Part shown: one piece after another, positions 11,967 through 56,012 of the stretch
Numbering within the stretch: position 1 is the first letter of the stretch
Layout of the letters: each line of letters begins with the position of its first letter
Source of the DNA: Somniosus microcephalus
Lineage: Eukaryota
NCBI GenBank assembly: GCA_052327205.1
Contig: CM126226.1
Span: 56,420,001-56,484,000, forward strand
DNA: 64,000 nucleotides
Reading direction: 5' to 3'
Notes under the pieces: generated by a model
What the model saw: only the letters and a program-made list of their open reading frames with translations
Told to the model about the DNA's origin: nothing
The model's database searches: none
Made by a program: the position numbers and the translations under genes

Positions 11967-14900
11967 GAACATAAGAACATAAGAAATAGGAGCAGGAGTA
12001 GGCCAATTGGCCCCTCGAGCCTGCTCCGCCATTCAATAAGATCATGGCTGATCTGATCCTAACCGCCAATCCACTATGACAGGACTATCTCCTGAATCTA
12101 ACAGCATTAGACACATGAAAACAGGAGCAGGATCAGGCTACACGGCCCCTGGGCCCGCTCCGCTACCCACAGGGCCATGACCTATCCGAACCTAGACTCA
12201 TGTCCAAATTCCTGCCCGCTCCCCGTAACCCTTAATTCCCTTTTCCACTAGAAACTGTCTATTTCTGTTTTAAATTTATGTAATGATGTTGGTTCGACAG
12301 CTTTTTGGGGCAGCATATTCCATGGACCTACCACCCTCTGAGTGAAGTAGTTCCTCCTCATCTCAGTTTTGAAAGAGCAGCCCCTTATTCTAAGACTATG
12401 CCCCCTAGTTCTAGTTTCACCCATCATCTGGAACATCCTCCCTGCATCCACCCGATCCAACCCCTTCATAATCTTATATGTTTCAATAAGATCGCCTCTC
12501 ATTCTTCTGAACTCCAATGAGTAGAGTCCCAATCTACTCAACCTCTTCTCATATGTCCATCCCCTCATCCCCGGGATTAATCGAGTGAACCTTCTTTGTA
12601 CTGACTCGAGAGTAAGTATGTCCTTTCTTAAGTATGGACACCAAAACTGTACGCAGTATTCCAGGTGCGGTCTCACCAATACCTTGTACAACTGAAGCAA
12701 TACCTCCCTATTTTTATATTCTATCCCCCTAGCAATGAAAGCCAACATTCCATTGGCCTTCTTAATCACTTGCTGCACCTGCATACTAACCTTTTGAGTT
12801 TCGTGCACCAGGACCCCCAGATCCCTTTGTACTTCAGTACTTTCAAGTTTCTTGCCATTAAGATAATAACTTGCTCTACGATTTTTCCTGCCAAAGTGCA
12901 TAACCTCACACTTTCCAGTATTGTATTCCATCTGCCAAATCTCTGCCCACTTACTTAGCCTGTCTATGTCCCCTTGCAGGTTTTTTATGTCCTCCTCACT
13001 CACTACTTTCCCTCCCATCTTAGTATCATCTGCAAACTTTGATATGTTACACTCGGTCCCCTCCTCCAAATCGTTAATATAGATTGTAAAGAGCTGGGGA
13101 CCCAGCACTGACCCCTGCGGAACACCACTAGTTACTGATTGCCATTCTGAGAATGAACCATTTATCCCAACTCTCTGCCTTCTGTTAGATAGCCAATCCT
13201 CTATCCATGCCAGAATATTACCCCCAATCCCGTGATTTTTTATCTTAAGCAATAATCTTTTGTGTGGCACCTTGTCAAATGCCTTTTGGAAGTCTAAATA
13301 CACTGGCCTAGAAATTGAGTTTTGGCTTAGCCAGGGCTTTAGCGCCGGAAGTTAGTGCCGGCGCTAAGTCCCCCTGCGCGCGCCAAAAATTCAGCAGGGC
13401 CGCGCCCAAACGGCTGCCGGCGCTACTGAAGGGTCTTTGCGGCGGTAACTCGGCGCTAACTGCCGTTTTGCGCCGCAATTCCGGCGCTGCGGCACCCGAT
13501 GCGGTGCGGCAGGCTCGGGAAGTGCAGGCCTCCTCCTTCCCTTAAGGAGGAGCTGCCTGCACCCGATCGCGGCCCGCGAAAATCTTTTAAAAAATGAGCC
13601 CGGCACCTCGGACAAGTGCCGGGCTTGCTTCTGTTCCGGGGGGGGGGGGGGGGGGAAGTCCGGGGAGGGAGCTGCGGCCAGGCGGCCGGCGGGAAAGCGG
13701 CCGGCCGCCGCGGGGCCTTTAATGCGCCGGCGCAAAGACTCGTAAGACTCTGTTGCCAGAGTCTTAGTTGCGGCTGTCACGGGCGAGGCGGCCGCAACTG
13801 AATTTCGGCGCTGGGGCCCGTCGGCATGGCAACCGGGACGCTGCGCACACCGATGACGTCATCGGTGCCGGCGCAGCGCTACGGGTCTACCGCGGCATAA
13901 GGGCCCCAGGCAATTTCGGCGCCGGCGCCAAATGCAGCGCTAGGCCCTCTAGCGCCGCAAAATCGGCGCTAAGGGCACTCAATTTCTAGGCCACTATGTC
14001 CACTGGTTCCCCTTTATCCACCCTATATGTTACTTCCTCAAAGAACTCCAGCAAATTTGTCAAACATGACTTCCCCTTCATAAAACCATGCTGACTTTGT
14101 CTTATTAAATGATGATTATCCAAATGTCCTGTTACTGTCTCCTTAATAATGGACTCCAAAATTTTACCTACCACAGATGTTAGGCTAACTGGTCTATAGT
14201 TTCCAGCCTTCTGTCTACTGCCCTTTTTAAATAAGGGTGTTACATTAGCAGTTTTCCAGTCTGCCGGGACCTTTGCTGAGTCCAGGGAGTTTTGGAAGAT
14301 TATTACCAATGCATCCACAATCCCTACCGCCACTTCCCTCAAAACCCTGGGATGTAAGCCATCAGGTCCAGGTGATTTATTCGCCTTGAGTCCCATTATT
14401 TTACCAAGTACTACTTCCTTAGTGATTTTAATCGTATTTAGCTCCTCCCCCCCTATAGCCCCCTGCTTGTCAAGTGTTGGGATATTCTTGGTGTCCTCTA
14501 CTGTAAAGACTGATACAAAATATTCATTCAGTGTTTTTGCCATCTCCATATTTCCCACCATTAATTTCCCGGTCTCATCCTCTAAGGGACCAACATTCAC
14601 TTTAGCCACCCTTTTTCTTTTTATATAACTATAAAAACTCTTACTATCTGTCTTTATATTTTTTGCTAATTTACTTTCATAATCTATCTTCCCTTTCTTA
14701 ATCAATCTTTTTGTTATTTTTTGCTGTCTTTTAAAGTTTTCCCAATCCTCTATCCTCCCACTAGATTTGGCTACCTTATATGCCCTTGTTTTTAGTCGAA
14801 TACTATCCTTAATTTCTTTACTTAGCCACGGATGGCTGTCTTTTCTTTTACACCCTTTTTTTCTCAGTGGAATATACTTTTTTTGGAATTTGTAAAATAA

Positions 14901-15195
14901 CTCCTTAAATGTACACCACTGATCATGTATCGTCTTATCCTTTAACCTATTTTCCCAATCCACTTTACTCAATTCCGCTCTCATACCTTCATAGTCTCCT
15001 TTATTCAAGCTTAGCACGCTTGTTTGAGATACAGCCTCCTCACCCTCTAACTGAATATGGAATTCAACCATGTTATGGTCACTCATTCCAAGGGGATCCT
15101 TTACTAGGACATTTTTAATTAATCCTGTCTCGTTACACAGGACCAGATCTAAGGTTGCTTGCCCCCTGGTTGGTTCAGTTACATACTGCTCAAGT
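11967..15195 (-). mobile_element. 5'-truncated CR1 LINE, interrupted by a MITE
   Basis: ORF2 is open at 13993-15086 and 12248-13303, with RT motifs [27 protein letters not shown] and FADD. It has an 8-nt repeat tail and is the same subfamily as the copy at 1-990. Confidence 0.95.
13305..13992. mobile_element. GC-rich non-autonomous DNA transposon, probably PIF/Harbinger type
   Basis: Perfect 16-bp TIR GGCCTAGAAATTGAGT and 3-bp TSD ACT. Removing it restores CR1 RT as GEPVDIVYLDFQKAF. Confidence 0.9.
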
Positions 15196-25049: not shown

Positions 25050-26573
25050 TGACCAACGGTTCCACCACAGACCCAATTCATGTATGGACCGGGGTCAAGC
25101 AAGGCTGTGTCATCGAACCAATGCTCTTATCGATCTTCCTTGCGGCAATGCTCCATCTCACCCTCAGTAAGCTCCCTGCTGGAGTGGAGTTAATTTACAG
25201 AACAAACGGGAAACTGTTCAACCTCCGTCGCCTCCAGTCCAGATCCAAGGTTGTCCCTTCCTCTGTCGTTGAATTACAGTATGCAGACGATGCTTGTGTC
25301 TGCGCTCACTCAGAGGTCGAACTCCAAACCATCATTAACACCTTCACCGAAGCATACGAGAGCATGGGCCTTACATAGAAACATAGAAGATAGGAGCAGG
25401 AGTAGGCCATTCGGCCCCCCGAGCCTGCTCTGCCATTTAATGAGATCATGGCTGATCATCCAAATTCAGTACCCTGTTCCTGCTTTCTCCCCATATCCCT
25501 TGATCCCTTTAGCCTTAAGAAATATATCTAATTCCTTCTTGAATATATTTAATGAATTGGCCTCAACTGCTGTCTGTGGTAGAGAATTCCACAGGTTCAC
25601 CACTCTCTGGGCGAAGAAATTCCTCCTCATCTCTGTCCTAAATGGCTTACCCCTTATCCTTAGACTAAACATCCGTAAGACAAAGGTCCTCTACCCACCT
25701 GCCCCCGCCACACAGTACTGCCCCCCGATTATCAAAATCCACGACAAGGCCTTGGACAACGTGGACCACTTTCCATACCTCGGGAGCCTACTGTCAACAA
25801 GGGCAGACGTCAACGACGAAGTCCAACACTGCCTTCAGTGTGCCAGTGCAGCCTTCGGTCGCCTGAGGAAGAGAGTGTTTGAAGACCAGGACCTCCAACC
25901 CGGCACCAAGCTCATGGTCGACAGAGCAGCAGTGATACCCGCCCTCCTGTATGCTTCAGAGACATGGACCATGTACAGCAGGCACCTCAAAGCACTGGAG
26001 AGGTACCACCAACGCTGCCTCCACAAGATCCTGCAAATCCATTGGCAGGATAGGCGCACCAACGTCAGTGTTCTTGCTCAGGCCAACATTCCCAGCTCCG
26101 AAGCTTTGACCATGCTCAATCAGCTCCGATGGATGGGTCACATCGTCTGCATGCCCGATACGAGACTCCCAAAACAAGTGCTCTACTCGGAGCTCCGACA
26201 CGGCAAGAGAGCCCCAGGTGGGCAGAGGAAACGCTTCAAGGACACCCTCAAAGCCTCCTTGAAAAAGTGTAACATCCCCACCGACACCTGGGAATCCCTG
26301 GCCCAAGACCGCACAAAGTGGAGGAGAAGCATCCGGGAAGGCGCCAAACACATCGAGTCTCTTCGCCGGGAGCAAGTGGAAGCCAAGCGCAGGCAGCGCA
26401 AGGAGCGCACGTCAACCCAAGCACCCCACCCACCCGTCCCTTCAACCACTGTCTGCCCCACCTGTGACAGAGACTGTAGGTCCCGCATTGGACTCATCAA
26501 TCACCTGAGAACTCATTTTTAATGTGGAAGCAAGTCATCCTCGGTTCAGAGGGACTGCCTAAGAAGAAGAAGA
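25050..26573 (+). mobile_element. RTE-clade (BovB-like) LINE, 5'-truncated, with a nested CR1 fragment
   Basis: GVKQGCV, LQYADD, FPYLGS, LLYASETW, a C-terminal CPTC..HLRTH finger and an (AAG)n tail. A ~145-bp duplication flanks it. Confidence 0.92.
25373..25665 (-). mobile_element. CR1 3' fragment nested in the RTE
   Basis: Encodes SLRIRGKPFRTEMRRNFFAQRVVNLWNSLPQ. The RTE frame resumes at LNIRKTKV. Confidence 0.88.
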
Positions 26574-45085: not shown

Positions 45086-47270
45086 AGAGGAGGCGGCCTT
45101 CGGTCGGGTGTCCCTGGAGGAGGCGGCCTTCGGTCGGGTGTCCCCGGGAGGAGGCTCCCTTCGGTCGGGTGTCCCCGGGAGGAGGCGGCCTTCGGTCGGG
45201 TGTCCCCGGGAGGAGGCGGCCTTCGGTCGGGTGTCCCCGGGAGGAGGCGGCCTTCGGTCGAGTGTCCCCGGGAGGAGGCTCCCTTCGGTCGGGTGTCCCC
45301 GGGAGGAGGCGGCCTTCGGTCGGGTGTCCCCGGGAGGAGGCTCCCTTCAGTCGGGTGTCCCCGGGAGGAGGCGGCCTTCGGTCGGGTGTCCCTGGAGGAG
45401 GCGGCCTTCGGTCGAGTGTCCCCGGGAGGAGGCGGCCTTCGGTCGGGTGTCCCCGGGAGGAGGCGGCCTTCGGTCGAGTGTCCCCGGGAGGAGGCTCCCT
45501 TCGGTCGGGTGTCCCCGGGAGGAGGCGGCCTTCGGTCGGGTGTCCCCGGGAGGAGGCTCCCTTCAGTCGGGTGTCCCCGGGAGGAGGCGGCCTTCGGTCG
45601 GGTGCCCCCAGGAGGAGGCTCCCTTCGGTCGGGTGCCCCCAGGAGGAGGCTCCCTTCGGTCGGGTGTCCCCGGGAGGAGGCTCCCTTCGGTCGGGTTTCC
45701 CCGGGAGGAGGCGGCCTTCGGTCGGGTGTCCCCGGGAGGAGGCTCCCTTCGGTCGGGTGCCCCTGGAGGAGGCTCCCTTCGGTCGGGTGTCCCTGGAGGA
45801 GGCTCCCTTCGGTCGAGTGTCCCCGGGGGGAGGCTCCCTTCGGTCGGGTGTCCCTGGAGGAGGCTCCCTTCGGTCGGGTGTCCCTGGAGGAGGCTCCCTT
45901 CGGTCGGGTGTCCCCGGGAGGAGGCTCCCTTCGGTCGGGTGTCCCCGGGAGGAGGCTCCCTTCGGTCGGGTGTCCCAGGAGGAGGCTCCCTTCGGTCGGG
46001 TGTCCCAGGAGGAGGCTCCCTTCGGTCGGGTGTCCCGGGAGGAGGCTCCCTTCGGTCGGGTGTCCCGGGAGGAGGCTCCCTTCGGTCGGATGTCCCCGGG
46101 AGGAGGCTCCCTTCGGTCGGGTGTCCCGGGAGGAGGCTCCCTTCGGTCGGATGTCCCCGGGAGGAGGCTCCCTTCGGTCGAGTGTCCCCGGGAGGAGGCT
46201 CCCTTCGGTCGAGTGTCCCCGGGAGGAGGCTCCCTTCGGTCGGGTGTCCCAGGAGGAGGCTCCCTTCGGTCGAGTGTCCCCGGGAGGAGGCTCCCTTCGG
46301 TCGGGTGTCCCAGGAGGAGGCTCCCTTCGGTCGGGTGTCCCAGGAGGAGGCTCCCTTCGGTCGGGTGTCCCGGGAGGAGGCTCCCTTCAGTCGGGTGTCC
46401 CGGGAGGAGGCTCCCTTCGGTCGGATGTCCCCGGGAGGAGGCTCCCTTCGGTCGGGTGTCCCCGGGAGGAGGCTCCCTTCGGTCGAGTGTCCCCGGGAGG
46501 AGGCTCCCTTCGGTCGAGTGTCCCCGGGAGGAGGCTCCCTTCGGTCGGGTGTCCCCGGGAGGAGGCGGCCTTCGGTCGGGTGTCCCGGGAGGAGGCTCCC
46601 TTCGTTCGGGTGTCCCGGGAGGAGGCTCCCTTCGGTCGGGTTTCCACGGGAGGAGGCGGCCTTCGGTCGGGTGTCCCCGGGAGGAGGCTCCCTTCGGTCG
46701 AGTGTCCCTGGAGGAGGCTCCCTTCGGTCGGGTGTCCCGGGAGGAGGCTCCCTTCGGTCGGGTGTCCCGGGAGGAGGCGGCCTTCGGTCGGGTGTCCCGG
46801 GAGGAGGCTCCCTTCGGTCGGGTGTCCCGGGAGGAGGCGGCCTTCGGTCGGGTGTCCCCGGGAGGAGGCTCCCTTCAGTCGGGTGTCCCCGGGAGGAGGC
46901 TCCCTTCGGTCGGGCACCCCTGGAGGAGGCTCCCTTCGGTCGAGTGTCCCCGGGAGGAGGCGGCCTTCGGTCGAGTGTCCCCGGGAGGAGGCTCCCTTCG
47001 GTCGGGTGTCCCCTGGAGGAGGCTCCCTTCGGTCGGGTTTCCCCGGGAGGAGGCTCCCTTCGGTCGGGTGTTCCCGGGAGGAGGCGGCCTTCGGTTGGGT
47101 GTCCCGGGAGGAGGCTCCCTTCGGTCGGGTTTCCCCGGGAGGAGGCGGCCTTCGGCCGGGTGTCCCCTGGAGGAGGCTCCCTTCGGTCGGGTTTCCCCGG
47201 GAGGAGGCGGCCTTCGGTCGGGTGTCCCCTGGAGGAGGCTCCCTTCGGTCGGAGGGCCCCTGGAGGAGGC
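45086..47270. repeat. GC-rich 30/31-bp minisatellite (GGAGGAGGC(TC/GG)CCTTCGGTCGGGTGTCCC(C)G), about 70 copies
   Basis: Head-to-tail units without spacers. Confidence 0.97.
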
Positions 47271-47993
47271 GGCGCTATTTAAATGCGTCCACATCTGGTT
47301 TAGTTTTCGTTGGCCAACAATGCTGCGTTGTTAGTTTCACATAAGCAAAGAGGTCTTTTGACCGATTTGAGCGTTGAGCGTTTTGTATTTTAACGAGTGT
47401 TCTTGCGCATAACGAATCTTCAGTTTCATTGAGGGGAGATTTGAAAGTGCAATATTTGGATCCTTTCATGGGGGCTGTACTGGCACTGGACCTCGCCCTC
47501 TAGCGTCAACATCAGAGGCAACTGAGGCACAGAGAAAGAGTGCAACATGTGGCCAGAGGGAGGAGGCCTTACCCACCCAGGGTATTCCAGCAGCAGATCT
47601 CCTGCATCAATCTCACTGAGGACCAGTGTGTTAGAAGGCTCCATTTCAGCAAGGATCTGGTCACAGAACTCTGCCACCTCCTGCAGCCAGACCTCGACCC
47701 TGAGATCAGGTCCACCAGGGCTCTCTCAGTGGTAGTCAAGGTCACCGTCCCCCTCAATTTCTACGCCAGTGGATCATTCCAGTGTGCAACAGGCAACATC
47801 TCCAACATCTCCCAGTTTGCCGTCCATTGCCCCATCTGCCAGGTCACAGATGCTCTGTACAGAAGGAGAAGGGACTACATTTCCTTCCCCATGAGCAGAG
47901 AGAAGCAGCGCGAGCGTGCATGTGGCTTTGCCAGGACCACGGGCTTCCCCATGGTGCAGGGCGCCATTGACTGCACTCACATCACTTTGCGCG

Positions 47994-48247
47994 TGTTGTG
48001 TATGTAACCGTTTACCTTTAAGGGAACTATAGAATGTGACCGTTCGCCTTTAAGAGCACTACTTCAGGGTGGCACTATTTATTGGCTCATGTATACTGTA
48101 ATACCGATAGTGACCACACCAGTATATAAGGGTTGTGATACGTTAACTAGGGCAGAAATCGCCCAGACCTCTGAATAGTAAAGACCTGTTTTATTTGTAC
48201 TTCTAAAGTCTCTGAAGTTATTTACTGCACAACCTACAGACTTTACA
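47994..48247 (+). repeat. 5' LTR
   Basis: TGTTGTG...CTTTACA, with TATATAA and AGTAAA signals. Identical by eye to the 3' LTR. Confidence 0.97.
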
Positions 48248-48248
48248 G

Positions 48249-48258
48249 TGGCGACGAG
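48249..48258 (+). promoter_or_regulatory. Primer-binding site, complementary to the tRNA-Ser(GCU) 3' end
   Basis: TGGCGACGAG lies 1 nt after the LTR and complements ...CUCGUCGCCA. Confidence 0.8.
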
Positions 48259-49082
48259 TCCGATCGTACCCTGCGGCAAGACTAGCCAGTAGCAGAGAGC
48301 TTCAAAAAGAAAACACGAGGCTCCGTCTACTAAAAGTATAGTACTTACTGGAAGCTGGAAGATTAACAGCAAAGCTGCGGCAGCAACAGGCACAGATTAC
48401 CCTGCTACCACATCTTGAGCGAGCCAATCAGCCTAAAACAAGGCGGCCGAAGAGACTGTGAGTAGTTAAAACAAATAAATTTAAAAAAACGGGGTAGAAG
48501 TATTTGGAGGAGAAGGGCAAAGCATTCGGGTCCAACGGCGTCGGGTGACAGCCGGACCGCGGGCAATGTGAGAAGCCGTGCAGCAACCGCTGCCACGAAG
48601 CGCTGAGCCTGCGAGTAGGCGCGGGTGTGTCAGAGCCGAGAGCCGCGCGAGCGGGGGAGCCAGAGCCGAGCGGGAGGCGTTGCAAGCCAGCGATCGCATC
48701 TCCAGATAAGGGCCGAGAGCCGCGAGAGCGATCGGATCTACAGATAAGGGCCGGCAGCCGCTTCGCGATCCAGCGATCGCATTATAGATAAGGACCGCAC
48801 TCGGGCTGACAGACGGCGTCGGGGGACCGGGTGAAGACCGCCAAGCGCGGGAAAACCGCCATTGAAGTGGGCGGGGAGAGCGAGAAGCACGGGAAAGCCG
48901 CCATTTTTCGGGGAAAACCGCGGAAGAAGAAGGAAGAAGCGGGAAACCGCCATCTTGGAAATTATTAAGAATTTCAGAAAAGTAATAAGATTTTTCAGAA
49001 AGGCTGGTGTGTTCTTAAGAAGAGAGAAGAAAATTAATAATAAGTAAAGTAATACTTGTACTGTTCTCAAAAAGAGAAGAAG

Positions 49083-50237
49083 ATGCCTAAGCGAGGAAAT
49101 ATTAATGACTTTAATGCAGAAATAGAAGACTGGGCCACGTATGTGGAACGCATAGAAATATATTGCGTAGCCAACGAAATTGAGGATGACAACAAGGCAA
49201 TAACTTTGTTAAATTCGATGGGAGCAAAAACATACGGGCTTTTGAAACATCTAATAGCACCAGTTAAACCAGTGGACCAGACCTTCGAAGAGATCGTAAC
49301 AGTGTTGAAGGATCACTTGAACCCCACACCGTTGATGCTGGCTGAACGATTTAAATTTTACGCCAGAACCCAGAGGCAAGATGAAAGCAATGCGGAATAC
49401 TTAGTCGAACTGCGTAAGCTAGCGAAATACTGCCAGTTTGGAGGGAATTTGACAGAGGCGCTGCGGGACAAGTTCGTATGCGGCTTGGCCAAAGAAGGAA
49501 CGCAGAAGCGACTTCTGGAAGAAAACGACCTCACACTGGACAGGGCTGTCCTCATAGCTTCATCGCACGAAGCCGCAGCGAAAGGGACGGCGGAAATGCA
49601 GCTAAAGGCGGCGGCACTCGGGGTGGACCAAATTACAACAAGCACTCCCAAATGCTACCGTTGTGGAAAGACAACGCACGACCAGAATCAGTGCTGGTTT
49701 AAGAACCAAGAGTGCAGGAAATGTGGCAAACTGGGTCACATCGCGAAGGTATGCAGGTCCGGAAAGAAGACCAACAAGCAAAGGAAGCCACCACCACAAG
49801 GAAAGTACAACAAGGTGCATCAGGTGGCTGAAAAGAGTTCAGACGAACAAAATTCAGACTCAGACCCAAACAGCCAGGAGCTGGATAGTCTGAGAATCCA
49901 CCATGTGGGTAAAGTAACTGATCTACAGTTGATCTGGGTCACACTAAAAATAGCGGGAGTCCAAGTACGAATGGAGCTGGACACGGGATCAGCTGTATCC
50001 GTCATCAACCAAAAGGACTATCACCGGCTATTCTCTCACATACCCTTAAGAAATACCAAATTCGTATTACAGACATACACGGGGCATCATGTATACCCCC
50101 TGGGAAAAATACGAGTCAAGGTGAGAGATAGGGGTAAAGAACACCCACGAATGTATCTGTACGTACTACCTGAGGGAGGACCACCACTTCTGGGATGGGA
50201 GTGGATCAAGAAAATAGACATGGAATGGCACTACTGA
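49083..50237 (+). CDS. gag: Gag-protease polyprotein, Mag-type
   Basis: EDWATYVERIE, ERFKFYARTQ and LRDKFVCGL motifs. Two CCHC knuckles (CYRCGKTTHDQNQC, CRKCGKLGHIAKVC). Protease LDTGSAVS and PLLGWEW. ATG at 49083. Confidence 0.92.
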   Translation: MPKRGNINDFNAEIEDWATYVERIEIYCVANEIEDDNKAITLLNSMGAKTYGLLKHLIAPVKPVDQTFEEIVTVLKDHLNPTPLMLAERFKFYARTQRQDESNAEYLVELRKLAKYCQFGGNLTEALRDKFVCGLAKEGTQKRLLEENDLTLDRAVLIASSHEAAAKGTAEMQLKAAALGVDQITTSTPKCYRCGKTTHDQNQCWFKNQECRKCGKLGHIAKVCRSGKKTNKQRKPPPQGKYNKVHQVAEKSSDEQNSDSDPNSQELDSLRIHHVGKVTDLQLIWVTLKIAGVQVRMELDTGSAVSVINQKDYHRLFSHIPLRNTKFVLQTYTGHHVYPLGKIRVKVRDRGKEHPRMYLYVLPEGGPPLLGWEWIKKIDMEWHY

Positions 50238-50243
50238 CAAGCA

Positions 50244-50594
50244 ATGACGAGTGAGGACTCGGTGCAGACAAGCAGCTCAGACTCCGAGCCGGAAGACGAT
50301 AAGTCCAGCTTATGTATGAAAAACAAGATTAACATGAACTCACGGACTAAGGTTGGGAAATCGATGGCGTGCATAAAGACAGAGAATTCTGAGTCTGTTC
50401 AAGCTACAGACAGATGCATTACGGAGGAACACCGGGCTAGAACTCAACGTTATGTCAAAGTACAACGACAATTAGAACAGTTGAGTGCCCCGTCTCCTAC
50501 AAGAGATGGAAAAGGTGAAAAAGTTCTGGGACACCGAATGGGAGTCCCTGGAAAGACAACAGAGACAGCCCACTCAAGCAGAGAGCGACCATAG
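50244..50594 (+). CDS. Cargo ORF A (unknown), in frame with gag-protease after a single TGA
   Basis: The sequence reads CAC TAC TGA CAA GCA ATG. The ORF overlaps ORF B. Confidence 0.4.
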   Translation: MTSEDSVQTSSSDSEPEDDKSSLCMKNKINMNSRTKVGKSMACIKTENSESVQATDRCITEEHRARTQRYVKVQRQLEQLSAPSPTRDGKGEKVLGHRMGVPGKTTETAHSSRERP

Positions 50595-51198
50595 AGCCAT
50601 CGTGGCCAAGTACCAATCACATCTCCCTGAGGCTGTTCAGGAACTAGAATATACACAGAACGATCCAAAGGAAGAGGAATCTTCAGGAAGTCAGGATGGT
50701 ATTCCAGTTCACCTCTACGACTTGTTGCAAGCAGAGTGTAACGAGTTGAAAGAACAGTATGAACAGGCTCGGACTACAATCCTGGAAGGGGTTAACTTGG
50801 CAACTTCCGAAAAGCTCGTGTTAGTGAAAGAACATGAACGACTAAAGGTTGACCATAAGCAAGAATTACAAAGTCTGCAGGAAATGTTTGATGAGCTTCA
50901 GGCCAAGGCTGACTCATCGTTAGGGATTCAATCCATAGGAAAAAAATTAGTGGTGGAAGACATACCAGAACAGGGAATACAGGATGTCCAAGAACTCGTT
51001 AAATTATTAAAGGAAACACAAAATAAATATGAAGCGGCAATGGCCGAGGTCCAACGACTTGAAGAACAGATGCAACTGGAAATCTTTTCAGTGGAAGAAA
51101 AGGGAACTGTAAGAAACACAGAGACCGTAAGAATGGGCCATGAACATGAGCTTAAATCGTCAGAGGAAGAAGGGTTTGGAGCTCTCAAAAGTTATTGA
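50485..51198 (+). CDS. Cargo ORF B: coiled coil resembling ANKRD24/RAI14/UACA-family segments
   Basis: DHRAIVAKYQSHLPEAVQ, IPVHLYDLLQAECNELKEQY and LKETQNKYEAAMAEVQRLEEQMQL match family motifs recalled from memory; not database-checked. Confidence 0.6.
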   Translation: MPRLLQEMEKVKKFWDTEWESLERQQRQPTQAESDHRAIVAKYQSHLPEAVQELEYTQNDPKEEESSGSQDGIPVHLYDLLQAECNELKEQYEQARTTILEGVNLATSEKLVLVKEHERLKVDHKQELQSLQEMFDELQAKADSSLGIQSIGKKLVVEDIPEQGIQDVQELVKLLKETQNKYEAAMAEVQRLEEQMQLEIFSVEEKGTVRNTETVRMGHEHELKSSEEEGFGALKSY

Positions 51199-51784
51199 AA
51201 TAGCCGAGGTTGCAACACAGACTGAGAAGTTGGCAGCAGAGCAACCCTTAGATACCAAAAGTACGCTGACTCATGTCAAGGTTGAACAACAGAACGCTGA
51301 AACAACTGCTCCGGTAGAGGGATTGAATAGTCCGATCAATCAATCTCCAAAGGAAGTTGAAGTATTAAAATCACAAATGAGGTCATTAGTAAACAACTTG
51401 CTGAAAGCCCAGAAAAAGTTAGAGGAAGCGGAACACGTGAAGAAGTCTCTTCAGGAAAGATGTCTGGATTTGGAACAAAAGCTGGCTGACGTCCAGCTGG
51501 GTAGGGAGGACATAGAAGACCCTCTCGCTGGCCTAGCTCAGGACGACTCCGAATATTACTATGTCCTGTCCTGCCCAACTTGTAACTTCGACTCCCACCA
51601 TACAGAAATCATGGAGGAGCACCGAAAGTCTACGGAACATCGGGAGAAGGTGGCTCTACTACGAAAAAGGAGGAAGAGAAGGAGGAACTGCGCATGCAGC
51701 TGGCAGCTGACAGTGGAGCTCAGAGAGTCTCCAAGAAGCAGAAAAGGAAAAGTCGAAACAGAAGATGACCCATCTGAACCATGA
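51140..51784 (+). CDS. Cargo ORF C: optineurin-like coiled coil, C2H2 (U1/matrin-like) zinc finger and basic NLS
   Basis: EVATQTE...EVEVLKSQMRSLVNNLLKAQKKLEEAEHVKKSLQERCLDLEQK, then CPTC-x12-H-x5-H, then RKRRKRRR. Confidence 0.6.
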   Translation: MNMSLNRQRKKGLELSKVIEIAEVATQTEKLAAEQPLDTKSTLTHVKVEQQNAETTAPVEGLNSPINQSPKEVEVLKSQMRSLVNNLLKAQKKLEEAEHVKKSLQERCLDLEQKLADVQLGREDIEDPLAGLAQDDSEYYYVLSCPTCNFDSHHTEIMEEHRKSTEHREKVALLRKRRKRRRNCACSWQLTVELRESPRSRKGKVETEDDPSEP

Positions 51785-52143
51785 TTACCTCTACCAGATC
51801 ACACACGTGGTCCCTCCGAACGGAGCCAATTCAGTTCGGAAGTTCAAACTGTTAAACCCATGGAAGGACTATTGAATGAGTCACTCCAGCAATGTGAACC
51901 GACTACACCACAGAGACTGAATCTATGAACTGTTTTCCACAGAGACTGAATCTGTGATTTGTTTTGACATGAAGTTATATATGTTATTATGTTATGTTAA
52001 ACATGAAGTTATATGACGTTGACTCCATCGAGAGTATATCTGTAAATTGTTATATGACGTTGACTCCATCGAGAGTATATCTGCAACCTGTTTATATAAA
52101 ATTGAAGATTGTATGTTTAACGGGATTCTGTAAGTAATAAGCT

Positions 52144-52156
52144 AGGAAGGGAGGAG
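52144..52156 (+). promoter_or_regulatory. Polypurine tract
   Basis: AGGAAGGGAGGAG abuts the 3' LTR. Confidence 0.9.
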
Positions 52157-52410
52157 TGTTGTGTATGTAACCGTTTACCTTTAAGGGAACTATAGAATGT
52201 GACCGTTCGCCTTTAAGAGCACTACTTCAGGGTGGCACTATTTATTGGCTCATGTATACTGTAATACCGATAGTGACCACACCAGTATATAAGGGTTGTG
52301 ATACGTTAACTAGGGCAGAAATCGCCCAGACCTCTGAATAGTAAAGACCTGTTTTATTTGTACTTCTAAAGTCTCTGAAGTTATTTACTGCACAACCTAC
52401 AGACTTTACA
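52157..52410 (+). repeat. 3' LTR
   Basis: 254 bp, followed by the TSD GCGCG. Confidence 0.97.
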
Positions 52411-52704
52411 GCGCGCATCTCATAACAATCCTGAGCTATTCCATAACTGCAAAGGCTACCGCTCATGTAATGTGCAGTTGGTATGCGACCACACATGGCG
52501 GATCCTGACCGTCAATGCCCGCTATCCTGGCAGCAGCCACGATGCCTTCATCCTGTGCCAGACCAGCGGGCCAGATCTATTCCAGCCTCCACATGAAGCT
52601 TGCGGCTGGCTGCTGGGAGACGAGGGCTATCCGCTCTCCACCTGGCTCATCACTCCCCTCCTCAACCCCAACACTCCTGGCCAGCACTCATACAATGAGA
52701 GCCA

Positions 52705-53958: not shown

Positions 53959-56012
53959 AGAGAGAGAGGGGGAAGGAGGAGAGAGAGAGAGAGGAAGGAG
54001 GAGAGAGAGAGAGGGGGAAGGGGGAGAGAGAGAGGGGGAAGGAGGAGAGAGAGAGGGGGAAGGAGGAGAGAGAGAGAGGGGGAAGGAGGAGAGAGAGAAG
54101 GAGGAGAGAGAGAGAGGGGGAAGGAGAGAGAGGGGGGGAGGAGAGAGCGAGGGGAAGGAGGAGAGAGAGAGAGAGGAGGAAGGAGGAGAGAGAGAGGGGG
54201 AAGGAGGAGAGAGAGAGGGGGAAGGAGGAGAGAGAGAGTGGGAAGGAGGAGAGAGAGAGAGGGGGAAGGAGGAGAGAGAGAGAGGGGGGAGGAGGAGAGA
54301 GAGAGAGGGGGGAGGAGGAGAGAGAGAGGGGGGAGGAGGAGAGAGAGAGAGGGGAAGGAGGACAGAGAGAGGGGGAAGGAGGAGAGAGAGAGGGGGAAGG
54401 AGGAGAGAGAGGGGGGGAAGGAGGAGAGAGAGAGAGGGGGAAGGAGGAGAGAGAGAGGGGGAAGGAGGAGAGAGAGAGGGGGAAGGAGGAGAGAGAGAGG
54501 GGGGAAGGAGGAGAGAGAGAGAGGGGGAAGGAGGAGAGAGAGAGAGGGAGAAGGAGGAGAGAGAGAGAGAGGGGGAAGGAGGAGAGAGAGAGAGAGGGGG
54601 AAGGAGGAGAGAGAGAAGGAGGAGAGAGAGAGAGGGGGAAGGAGAGGGGGAAGGAGGAGAGAGAGAGTGGGAAGGAGGAGAGAGAGAGGGGGGAAGGAGG
54701 AGAGAGAGAGAGGGGGGAGGAGGAGAGAGAGAGAGGGGGAGGAGGAAGAGAGAGAGGGGGAGGAGGAGAGAGAGAGAGGGGGAAGGAGGACAGAGAGAGG
54801 GGGAAGGAGGAGACGAGAGAGAGGGAGAGAGGGGGGGAAGGAGGAGAGAGAGAGAGGGGAAGGAGGAGAGAGAGAGGGGGAGGAGGAGGAGAGAGAGGGG
54901 GGAAGGAGGAGAGAGAGAGAGGGGGAAGGAGGAGAGAGAGAGAGGGGGAAGGAGGAGAGAGAGAGAGAGGGGGAAGGAGGAGAGAGAGAAGGAGGAGAGA
55001 GAGAGAGGGGGAAGGAGAGAGGGGGAAGGAGAGAGGGGGAAGGAGGAGAGAGAGAGAGAGAGGGGGAAGGAGGAGAGAGAGAGAGAGAGGGGGAAGGAGG
55101 AGAGAGAGAGGGGGAAGGAGGAGAGAGAGAGGGGGAAGGAGGAGAGAGAGGGGGGAAGGAGGAGAGAGAGAGAGGAGGAAGGAGGAGAGAGAGAGAGGGG
55201 GAAGGAGGAGAGAGAGAGAGGGGGAAGGAGGAGAGAGAGAGTGGGGGAAGGAGGAGAGAGAGAGAGAGGGGGAAGGAGGAGAGAGAGAGAGGGGGAAGGA
55301 GGAGAGAGATGGGGGAAGGAGGAGAGAGAGAGGGGGGGAAGGAGGAGAGAGAGAGAGGGGAAGGAGGAGAGAGAGAGGGGGAAGGAGGAGAGAGAGAGGG
55401 GGAAGGAGGAGAGAGAGAGGGGGAAGGAGGAGAGAGAGAAGGGGAAGGAGGAGAGAGAGAGGGGGAAGGAGGAGAGAGAGGGGGGGAAGGAGGAGAGAGA
55501 GAGGGGGAAGGAGGAGAGAGAGAAGGGGAAGGAGGAGAGAGAGAGGGGGAAGGAGGAGAGAGAGAGGGGGAAGGAGGAGAGAGAGAAGGGGAAGGAGGAG
55601 AGAGAGAGGGGGAAGGAGGAGAGAGAGAGGGGGAAGGAGGAGAGAGAGAGGGGGAAGGAGGAGAGAGAGAGAGGGGGAAGGAGGAGAGAGAGAGAGGGGG
55701 AAGGAGGAGAGAGAGAGAGAGGGGGAAGGAGGAGAGAGAGAGAGGGGGAAGGAGGAGAGAGAGAGAAGGGGAAGGAGGAGAGAGAGAAGGGGAAGGAGGA
55801 GAGAGAGAGGGGGAAGGAGGAGAGAGAGAGGGGGAAGGAGGAGAGAGAGAGAGGGGGAAGGAGGAGAGAGAGAGAGGGGGAAGGAGGAGAGAGAGAGAGG
55901 GGGAAGGAGGAGAGAGAGAGAGGGGGAAGGAGGAGAGAGCGAGGGGGAAGGAGGTGAGAGAGAGAGGGGGAAGGAGGAGAGAGAGGGGGAAGGAGGAGAG
56001 AGAGAGAGAGGG
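53959..56012. repeat. GA-rich polypurine repeat (GGGGGAAGGAG(GA)n)
   Basis: About 2 kb of almost pure purine. Confidence 0.97.

Follow-up and report, generated by a model that had tools for sequence, protein, structure and literature searches.

Family A, a pol-less Ty3/Gypsy retrotransposon with in-frame host-derived exons in Somniosus microcephalus

We analysed a stretch of 64,000 nucleotides from Somniosus microcephalus (GenBank assembly GCA_052327205.1, contig CM126226.1, positions 56,420,001 to 56,484,000, forward strand), which is called the window below and is numbered from its first letter. At 47994–52410 the window contains a long terminal repeat (LTR) retrotransposon in which gag and protease (PR) are followed by a cargo of host-like coding fragments. 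This copy is a damaged member of a high-copy family without pol, here named family A. On the whole we favour the explanation that family A belongs to the Ty3/Gypsy elements, that its gag-PR was fused to host exons captured by template switching, and that an open frame was favoured for the sake of the carrier RNA, the copy in the window being a broken one. The fused tail is likely to serve to hold the frame open more than to perform a job of its own.

Family A and its copy in the window

The 6.45-Gb genome was searched with the cargo region (50240–51790). Out of 4,435 first-look candidates came 40 matches that are dispersed and nearly identical, and 30 cargo-selected loci (the window copy and 29 others) were compared. 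A second set, selected by the LTR, includes 39 loci out of 40 LTR matches, eight of which duplicate cargo-selected loci. Both sets without these duplicates, two structural variants and one truncated locus make up 58 family-A copies. Nearly all LTR-selected loci (38 of 39) are complete elements, 37 have a 5-bp target site duplication (TSD), 28 have identical LTRs, and pol was found in none of the 39. One exact 30-nt cargo junction, the back-splice-type one at 50640–50641, is present in 439 genomic copies, and its reversed control in none. With neither reverse transcriptase (RT) nor integrase (IN) and with many copies that have their own TSDs, family A is a non-autonomous LTR element. A preliminary description, made from the letters of the window alone, had regarded the element as young, pol-less and transposed as a chimera, and the cargo-bearing copies dispersed genome-wide agree with it. 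The possibility that the cargo is a secondary insertion at the window locus alone is ruled out by the dispersed copies with distinct TSDs and the 439 exact junctions. Two pairs of copies on the same contig (L014/L015 and L049/L050) share variants or TSD, and are probably segmental duplicates rather than separate insertions.

An uninterrupted frame of 903–904 codons from gag to the cargo end exists in 24 of 29 cargo-selected copies, and one of about 900 codons in 22 of 28 LTR-selected family-A copies. In total, 46 of 58 copies have an open gag-PR-cargo frame of 900–915 codons (44 under a stricter motif filter). The window copy has a stop closing the protease and single-base indels near 50488, 51167 and 51662, which are common to none of the other 57 copies. 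The three overlapping open reading frames (ORFs A–C) previously read as a feature of the element are produced by this one stop and the three 1-bp indels, and are not a family trait.

At the family level, most RNA reads are likewise free of the window-copy indels. The run index names no RNA data set that contains the sequence, and two RNA runs (X7 and X8) were chosen by species label; this label is shared with a data set containing 65% of the query words and may differ from the window's species, and family sequence is present in contigs from three organism labels. Family reads are present in both runs and cannot be assigned to the window copy. In X7, 10,519 of 16.65 million records were placed on the element, 1,654 of them at ≥99% identity. 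X7 reads are strongly single-stranded (sense under the usual library convention), and X8 is more mixed. In the two runs, the reads without the window-copy indels are 16/16 and 32/39 at 50488, 92/110 and 30/42 at 51167, and 227/366 and 118/166 at 51662. Reads in both runs (31 and 12) also skip 315 nt in frame within gag (window 49313–49629), with non-canonical splice ends, perhaps from a deleted copy elsewhere.

The preliminary description listed identical 254-bp LTRs, a perfect 5-bp TSD, a primer binding site (PBS), a polypurine tract (PPT) and a gag-protease ORF, and all of them were found again in the window copy (Table 1); TG...CA LTRs, PBS, PPT and a TSD within 4–6 bp are the marks of an LTR retrotransposon. 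The PBS is a putative match to tRNA-Ser. The gag-protease ORF (49086–50237) has Pfam matches to a CCHC knuckle and an aspartyl protease, and the absence of RT, RNase H (RH) and IN was borne out by zero Pfam matches among the 6 ORFs scanned in the element. Proteins that match gag-PR at 31–49% identity have gag and pol in a single ORF and are about 1300 aa long. The gag-PR of family A is 77–79% identical in amino acids to that of an autonomous family, Q, which has the Ty3/Gypsy order PR-RT-RH-IN in a single frame, whereas family A itself lacks pol. The placement in the Mag clade is a tentative label.

Host donor genes and non-colinear exon joints

When 7,998 candidate proteins were scored against the C-terminal half of P0001, a natural copy whose frame is unbroken, 18 matched, all of them shark ankycorbin or optineurin. 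Both the ankycorbin-like and the optineurin host genes were located in the source genome. The third donor was recognised via the Pfam PKK domain in sister families and mapped to an STK10-like gene, which we presume to be STK10 rather than SLK from motif likeness. The host-like origin given in the preliminary description is therefore backed by protein- and exon-level matches to three host genes in the same genome, and the same matches rule out ORFs A–C as known retroelement proteins. ORF B used alone as query had no homologue, which is a length-window effect, and the ESM atlas gave for the cargo nothing beyond optineurin/NEMO-like leads, under 0.9. For the zinc finger, no source match was found among the 20 loci compared.

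Some sister families are closer to the host genes. For example, family B contains six consecutive optineurin exons joined exactly, five of them at 96–99% identity, the STK10 piece is 95–99% identical to the host exons in families S, B and D, and the ankycorbin piece is 96% identical in family C. Introns are exactly absent from the captured exons, indicating capture through RNA. Intron-less host exons with microhomology at the switch points (7–14 nt at the junctions) are what LTR-mediated gene capture leaves behind.

Two of the exon joints are not colinear with the host genes. In the ankycorbin piece, the penultimate exon stops at its donor and the sequence resumes at the acceptor of the large exon about 11.5 kb upstream. 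In the STK10 piece, exon d stops at its donor and the sequence resumes at the acceptor of the upstream exon a. Moreover, in families B and D the STK10 copy begins within exon b and has the order b-c-d-a-b, with entry and exit at the same 14-nt motif (6993 vs 7006, host strand), which is pol-like at both sites. This order is one full turn of a circle. An exact donor-to-upstream-acceptor joint, as in retrocopies derived from circular RNA (circRNA), is thus present at two genes, with one complete permutation, and circular RNA templates quite probably lie behind the non-colinear joints. A preprint (10.64898/2026.01.21.700838) reports that host circRNAs are packaged by retroviral Gag on its own, and co-packaging is plausible on that account. 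The chimeric nature of the element had been seen correctly in the preliminary description, which mentions neither back-splice joints nor the far wider spread of sister families.

The same selection could have acted on joints of another origin, namely template switches between linear mRNAs, or transcripts that were trans-spliced or carried duplicated exons; we consider this unlikely. In its favour, and against circular templates, the back-splice exon ends share CAG|G or AG (2–4 nt), so linear-mRNA template switching can mimic the joints. A deletion at a non-splice microhomology is found inside the STK10 piece of the element, and the exons preceding the two back-splice acceptors were not found in the host spans examined. 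Other routes to non-colinear joints are also noted by Dong et al. 2016 (PMC4897178). However, donor and acceptor are exact in two independent genes, and one circular permutation (STK10) is complete. No tandem exon duplicate was found within 42 kb and 20 kb of host spans, where the exons are single-copy besides an element copy in an intron. The ankycorbin circle is also flanked by an inverted repeat, a weak sign (control pairs 24/200 and 5/200).

Table 1. Features of the element copy in the window and of its insertion site
Feature	Position	Strand	Basis or remark
Harbinger-type transposase frame, split by the element	47504..52704 (47504-47993 + 52411-52704)	+	Pfam DDE_Tnp_4 E 1.7e-13, right flank
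Left TSD GCGCG	47989..47993	+	
5' LTR, TG...CA, 254 bp	47994..48247	+	sequence comparison with 3' LTR
PBS TGGCGACGAG, just 3' of 5' LTR	48249..48258	+	same PBS in autonomous family Q
gag, two CCHC knuckles (about 49650-49757)	49086..49937	+	Pfam
Aspartic protease, terminated by stop private to window copy (50235-50237)	49938..50237	+	Pfam
STK10-like exons b, c, part of d, with in-frame internal deletions; indel break near 50488	50249..50570	+	blastn to host exons G000:C8:167.19 Mb, 76-91%
Complete penultimate coding exon of host ankycorbin-like gene	50575..50640	+	88% to L081:9348-9414
Back-splice-type junction, penultimate-exon donor to acceptor of upstream large exon	50640..50641	+	
5' part of large coiled-coil exon, ankycorbin-like gene (G000:C13:62.86 Mb)	50641..51152	+	83.6% nt over 517 bp; shark ankycorbin protein matches
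Optineurin piece of three spliced exons (G000:C17:85.89 Mb) with a shared deletion of 21 nt; frame broken by indel near 51167	51171..51513	+	81-89% nt, protein matches
C2H2 zinc finger and basic tail; indel break near 51662	51514..51768	+	97.5% to sister family E
Remnant of STK10 exon b start (end of circle turn), now 3' untranslated region (UTR)	51788..51880	+	84-87%
Remnant of pol 3' end and adjoining 3' UTR of autonomous family Q	51936..52000	+	87%
PPT, just 5' of 3' LTR	52144..52156	+	
3' LTR, base-for-base same as 5' LTR	52157..52410	+	LTR comparison
Right TSD GCGCG	52411..52415	+	

Both flanks of the element share one Harbinger-type transposase reading frame. This Harbinger remnant lies in turn between a GC-rich minisatellite, with 71 copies of a 31-bp unit, and a GA-rich array of 2 kb (window 45087–47270 and 53959–56012). 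Elsewhere in the window, open frames of 370–440 codons at 12250–15194 (minus strand) and 25194–26520 (plus strand) look by eye like LINE ORF2 fragments.

Sister families and autonomous relatives

The PKK domain search had 16,568 first-look candidates, all 150 that were scored lay above the cut-off, many in frames of 600–1260 codons, and 11 of 12 PKK loci examined are gag-PR-cargo elements; the candidate counts of the families overlap and are not copy numbers. Family S has STK10 cargo only. Family B has STK10 and optineurin and keeps the optineurin DSFVEI motif, presumably the LC3-binding motif, whereas family A is without the DSFVEI segment. Family D adds to the STK10 cargo immunoglobulin (Ig) domains closest to titin (E 1e-29). 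Nine loci (L100–L105, L107, L108, L110) contain two to three titin-like Ig domains within STK10 exon a, some with a C2H2 finger module directly after the protease. In family C (1,684 candidates) ankycorbin was added, and a variant of family A (1,538 candidates; L045, L053, L111–L122) has a further coiled-coil insert of 165 aa inside the ankycorbin piece. For the insert of L045 the ESM atlas gave generic coiled-coil matches only; the insert may be EVI5-like. Modules were exchanged among the sister families, and since the 3' end of family A is 97.5% identical to that of family E, family A is a recombinant.

Autonomous relatives were found as well (families Q, R and P). Between S and Q the identity is 96% over gag-PR and 98–99.6% over the tail and LTR, and only 13 close tail matches of Q were found, one of them being the S query. 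Form S has STK10 exons where Q has RT-RNaseH-IN, and its junctions are marked by short microhomologies. These comparisons show family Q to be the parent of S, the simplest pol-less form. The LTRs of Q are 96–99% shared with S and B; with family A, about 75–78% is shared, plus the termini, PBS and PPT. The preliminary description called for a search for an autonomous partner; one exact-motif search, without positive control, for the A-type protease followed by RT gave 0 matches. In a tree built from gag-PR, families A and C group together on a long, supported branch next to Q, S, B and D, and the deeper fork is unresolved.

Family P is ruled out as the direct parent (gag-PR 58–59%), and it is a possible helper. 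It is abundant and young (L123–L142, L168–L172; 2,515 candidates), with copies 98–99% identical and LTRs of 180 bp, and most of the frames examined are broken. A family-C copy with ankycorbin exons lies antisense in an ankycorbin intron (L081:3070–7962, G000:C13:62.867–62.872 Mb). This copy has a 5-bp TSD of its own, and its LTRs are 98.4% identical. It is ruled out as founder, being an ordinary broken member of its family. Two further relatives (L082, L083) lie within 25 kb downstream of it. Given the copy number, the whole arrangement is possibly due to chance. Locus L099 (G000:C3:354.658 Mb) contains intron-less 3' STK10-like exons, 87–98% identical in amino acids to the spliced gene and LINE-adjacent, and is probably a processed retrocopy.

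Selection, mechanism and known systems

The ratio of nonsynonymous to synonymous substitution rates (dN/dS) was estimated with pairwise codon models on single natural copies. For gag-PR it is 0.08 between A and C, 0.10 between A and Q and 0.27 (p=0.003) between A and its insert variant, and 0.7 for the young pairs B-Q and S-Q. For the cargo against host exons it is 0.67 in A (CI 0.47–0.97, 398 codons), 0.64 in C, 0.77 in the insert variant, 0.59 in E and 0.28 in B, and the ankycorbin part of the A cargo reaches 0.92. Between families the cargo value is 0.85–0.91 (C-B 0.61, from a gappy alignment). Private and shared variants within family A are near the neutral expectation (small counts). The dN/dS comparison suggested in the preliminary description thus has a divided outcome: across families gag-PR is under strong purifying selection and the cargo is weakly constrained, and within family A little of this is seen.

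The A cargo has diverged by 12–25% from the host exons and contains no stops, compared with 7.7 expected under neutral simulation at the observed dN (P=0.0005), and the larger internal deletions checked (60, 21 and 69 nt) are all multiples of three. The frame is kept open while the cargo residues drift nearly freely. From the stop codon to the 3' LTR there are 83–552 nt in the 8 families measured, and about 1.9 kb after the early stop of the window copy.

In the mechanism proposed here, the element would make its own Gag and protease and package its own RNA, probably with an advantage in cis, and RT and integrase would be borrowed from a related autonomous element. Host mRNAs and circRNAs would be co-packaged, and template switching by RT would capture exons serially. 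The protease probably cleaves the cargo off at the former RT start. The cargo would mainly take the place of pol: translation would then continue to a point near the 3' LTR, and the genomic RNA would either avoid long-3'UTR decay or retain its packaged length. Template switching on co-packaged RNA is described as established for LTR retrocopies (PMC5131818). For Ty1, some translation may be needed for RNA stability (PMC3945221); trans-packaging of Ty1 is described as efficient in the same source, and cis preference is therefore not a given.

Several observations weigh against this explanation. The helper of family A is one weak point, as the LTR of family A is only about 75–78% like that of family Q. 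The window copy has identical LTRs and yet carries 3 of the 6 frameshifting indels found in 58 copies. Either a broken donor was mobilised, in which case an open frame is no strict requirement, or the indels are errors in the assembly. Shared variants within family A have no deficit of amino-acid changes, even in gag-PR (small counts). The synonymous distance between A and C is 0.72 in gag-PR, three times the 0.25 of the cargo, and part of the gag-PR constraint may therefore stem from an unfound autonomous lineage. For the cargo, dN/dS lies a little under 1 (A and C: p about 0.03) and is low in B, which allows some protein function. Finally, microhomology between coding sequences favours in-frame joints, and protein searches found most of the sister families.

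Two explanations give the cargo a function. The cargo could be a functional accessory protein, whose coiled coils bring about oligomerisation of Gag-PR or which acts as a decoy, derived from optineurin, in autophagy or innate signalling; this appears improbable to us. Coiled-coil proteins are the source of three captured pieces in A, no pol-less family examined has lost the STK10 coil, the optineurin motif is retained in family B, and cargo dN/dS against the host is below 1. But swapping, trimming and replacement of the modules are free, Ig domains being among the replacements, the DSFVEI segment was lost from A, the element-to-element values approach 1, and the host branch depresses pairwise dN/dS where divergence is small. 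The novel accessory protein of the preliminary description does not exist as separate ORFs, the cargo being a single C-terminal extension in frame with Gag-PR and of dN/dS 0.6–0.9, unlike an accessory or env-like ORF; the idea is weakly supported, because the cargo residues drift almost freely (0.67 against the host exons, 0.85–0.91 between families) compared with 0.08–0.10 in gag-PR. It is likewise doubtful that a vertebrate retrotransposon lineage, having given up pol, keeps shuffling exons by packaging host circRNAs and copying full turns of them into the Gag-PR frame, its host-derived tails (STK10, optineurin with its presumed autophagy motif, ankycorbin and titin-like Ig) being retained by selection as functional parts with which it out-replicates the autonomous parent by orders of magnitude. 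Neutral hitch-hiking, with in-frame joints due to coding-sequence microhomology and the open frame due to the youth of the copies, would fit the near-neutral variation inside family A, the microhomology at junctions and the 14 of 17 young LTR retrocopies in frame, possibly due to youth, of Tan et al. 2016 (PMC5131818), but the lack of stops at such a divergence and the deletions divisible by three make it very unlikely.

These elements are of interest in several ways. Gene capture is here a heritable trait that accumulates within a thriving mobile lineage and does not stop at a dead-end retrocopy. Each family offers hundreds of datable copies, and the donor exons lie in the same genome; why captures so frequently keep the frame thus becomes testable, be it through RNA surveillance or through the function of the protein. 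Fragments of STK10, optineurin and ankycorbin, in frame and numbering in the thousands, would also bias the gene annotation of this lineage, its domain counts and its RNA-seq mapping.

LTR gene capture is known, and the scale and the back-splice templates are what is unusual here. No report of the family was found in the literature searched, which was mostly open-access and without Repbase/Dfam. Single-ORF Ty3/Gypsy elements like K02A2.6, often placed in the Mag group, are similar in gag-PR (31–49% identity), and their RT, RNase H and integrase are absent from family A. Transducing retroviruses with gag-onc fusions are replication-defective and helper-dependent, and in place of pol they have spliced exons of the host joined to gag. 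Family A shares this replacement and, presumably, the helper dependence; in contrast, it lacks env, has a Ty3/Gypsy backbone, was amplified in the germline and gives no indication that the host piece retains its activity.

Maize Bs1 is an LTR element with fragments of three host genes, re-mobilised as a chimera (PMC5131818, PMC13317346). However, Bs1 is described there with 1–5 copies and one piece out of frame, whereas this family has at least 439 copies and a genome-wide radiation. The circRNA-derived pseudogenes of Dong et al. 2016 (PMC4897178) have non-colinear exon joints as their signature, and the mouse circRFWD2 copies (33–42) are enriched for flanking LTR sequence. In the available text of that paper they are pseudogenes and the mechanism is called unknown; by contrast, the circle-derived exons here lie inside an intact LTR-gag-PR element, are in frame, have microhomology at entry and exit, and were amplified with the element. 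An LTR particle with microhomology switching would offer a concrete route from circRNA to genome.

A further likeness is to animal LTR retrocopies (Tan et al. 2016, PMC5131818), which are host mRNA segments in LTR elements with microsimilarity at switch points, multi-gene chimeras, sense orientation and often an intact frame. The word "circular" is absent from the available text of that paper. Most of those retrocopies are young loci with few copies, and among 21 older ones 14 carry loss-of-function changes. The radiation described here differs: its copies number in the hundreds to thousands, captures were serial, the frame persists at 12–25% divergence, the fusion is to a conserved Gag-PR, and there are back-splice joints.

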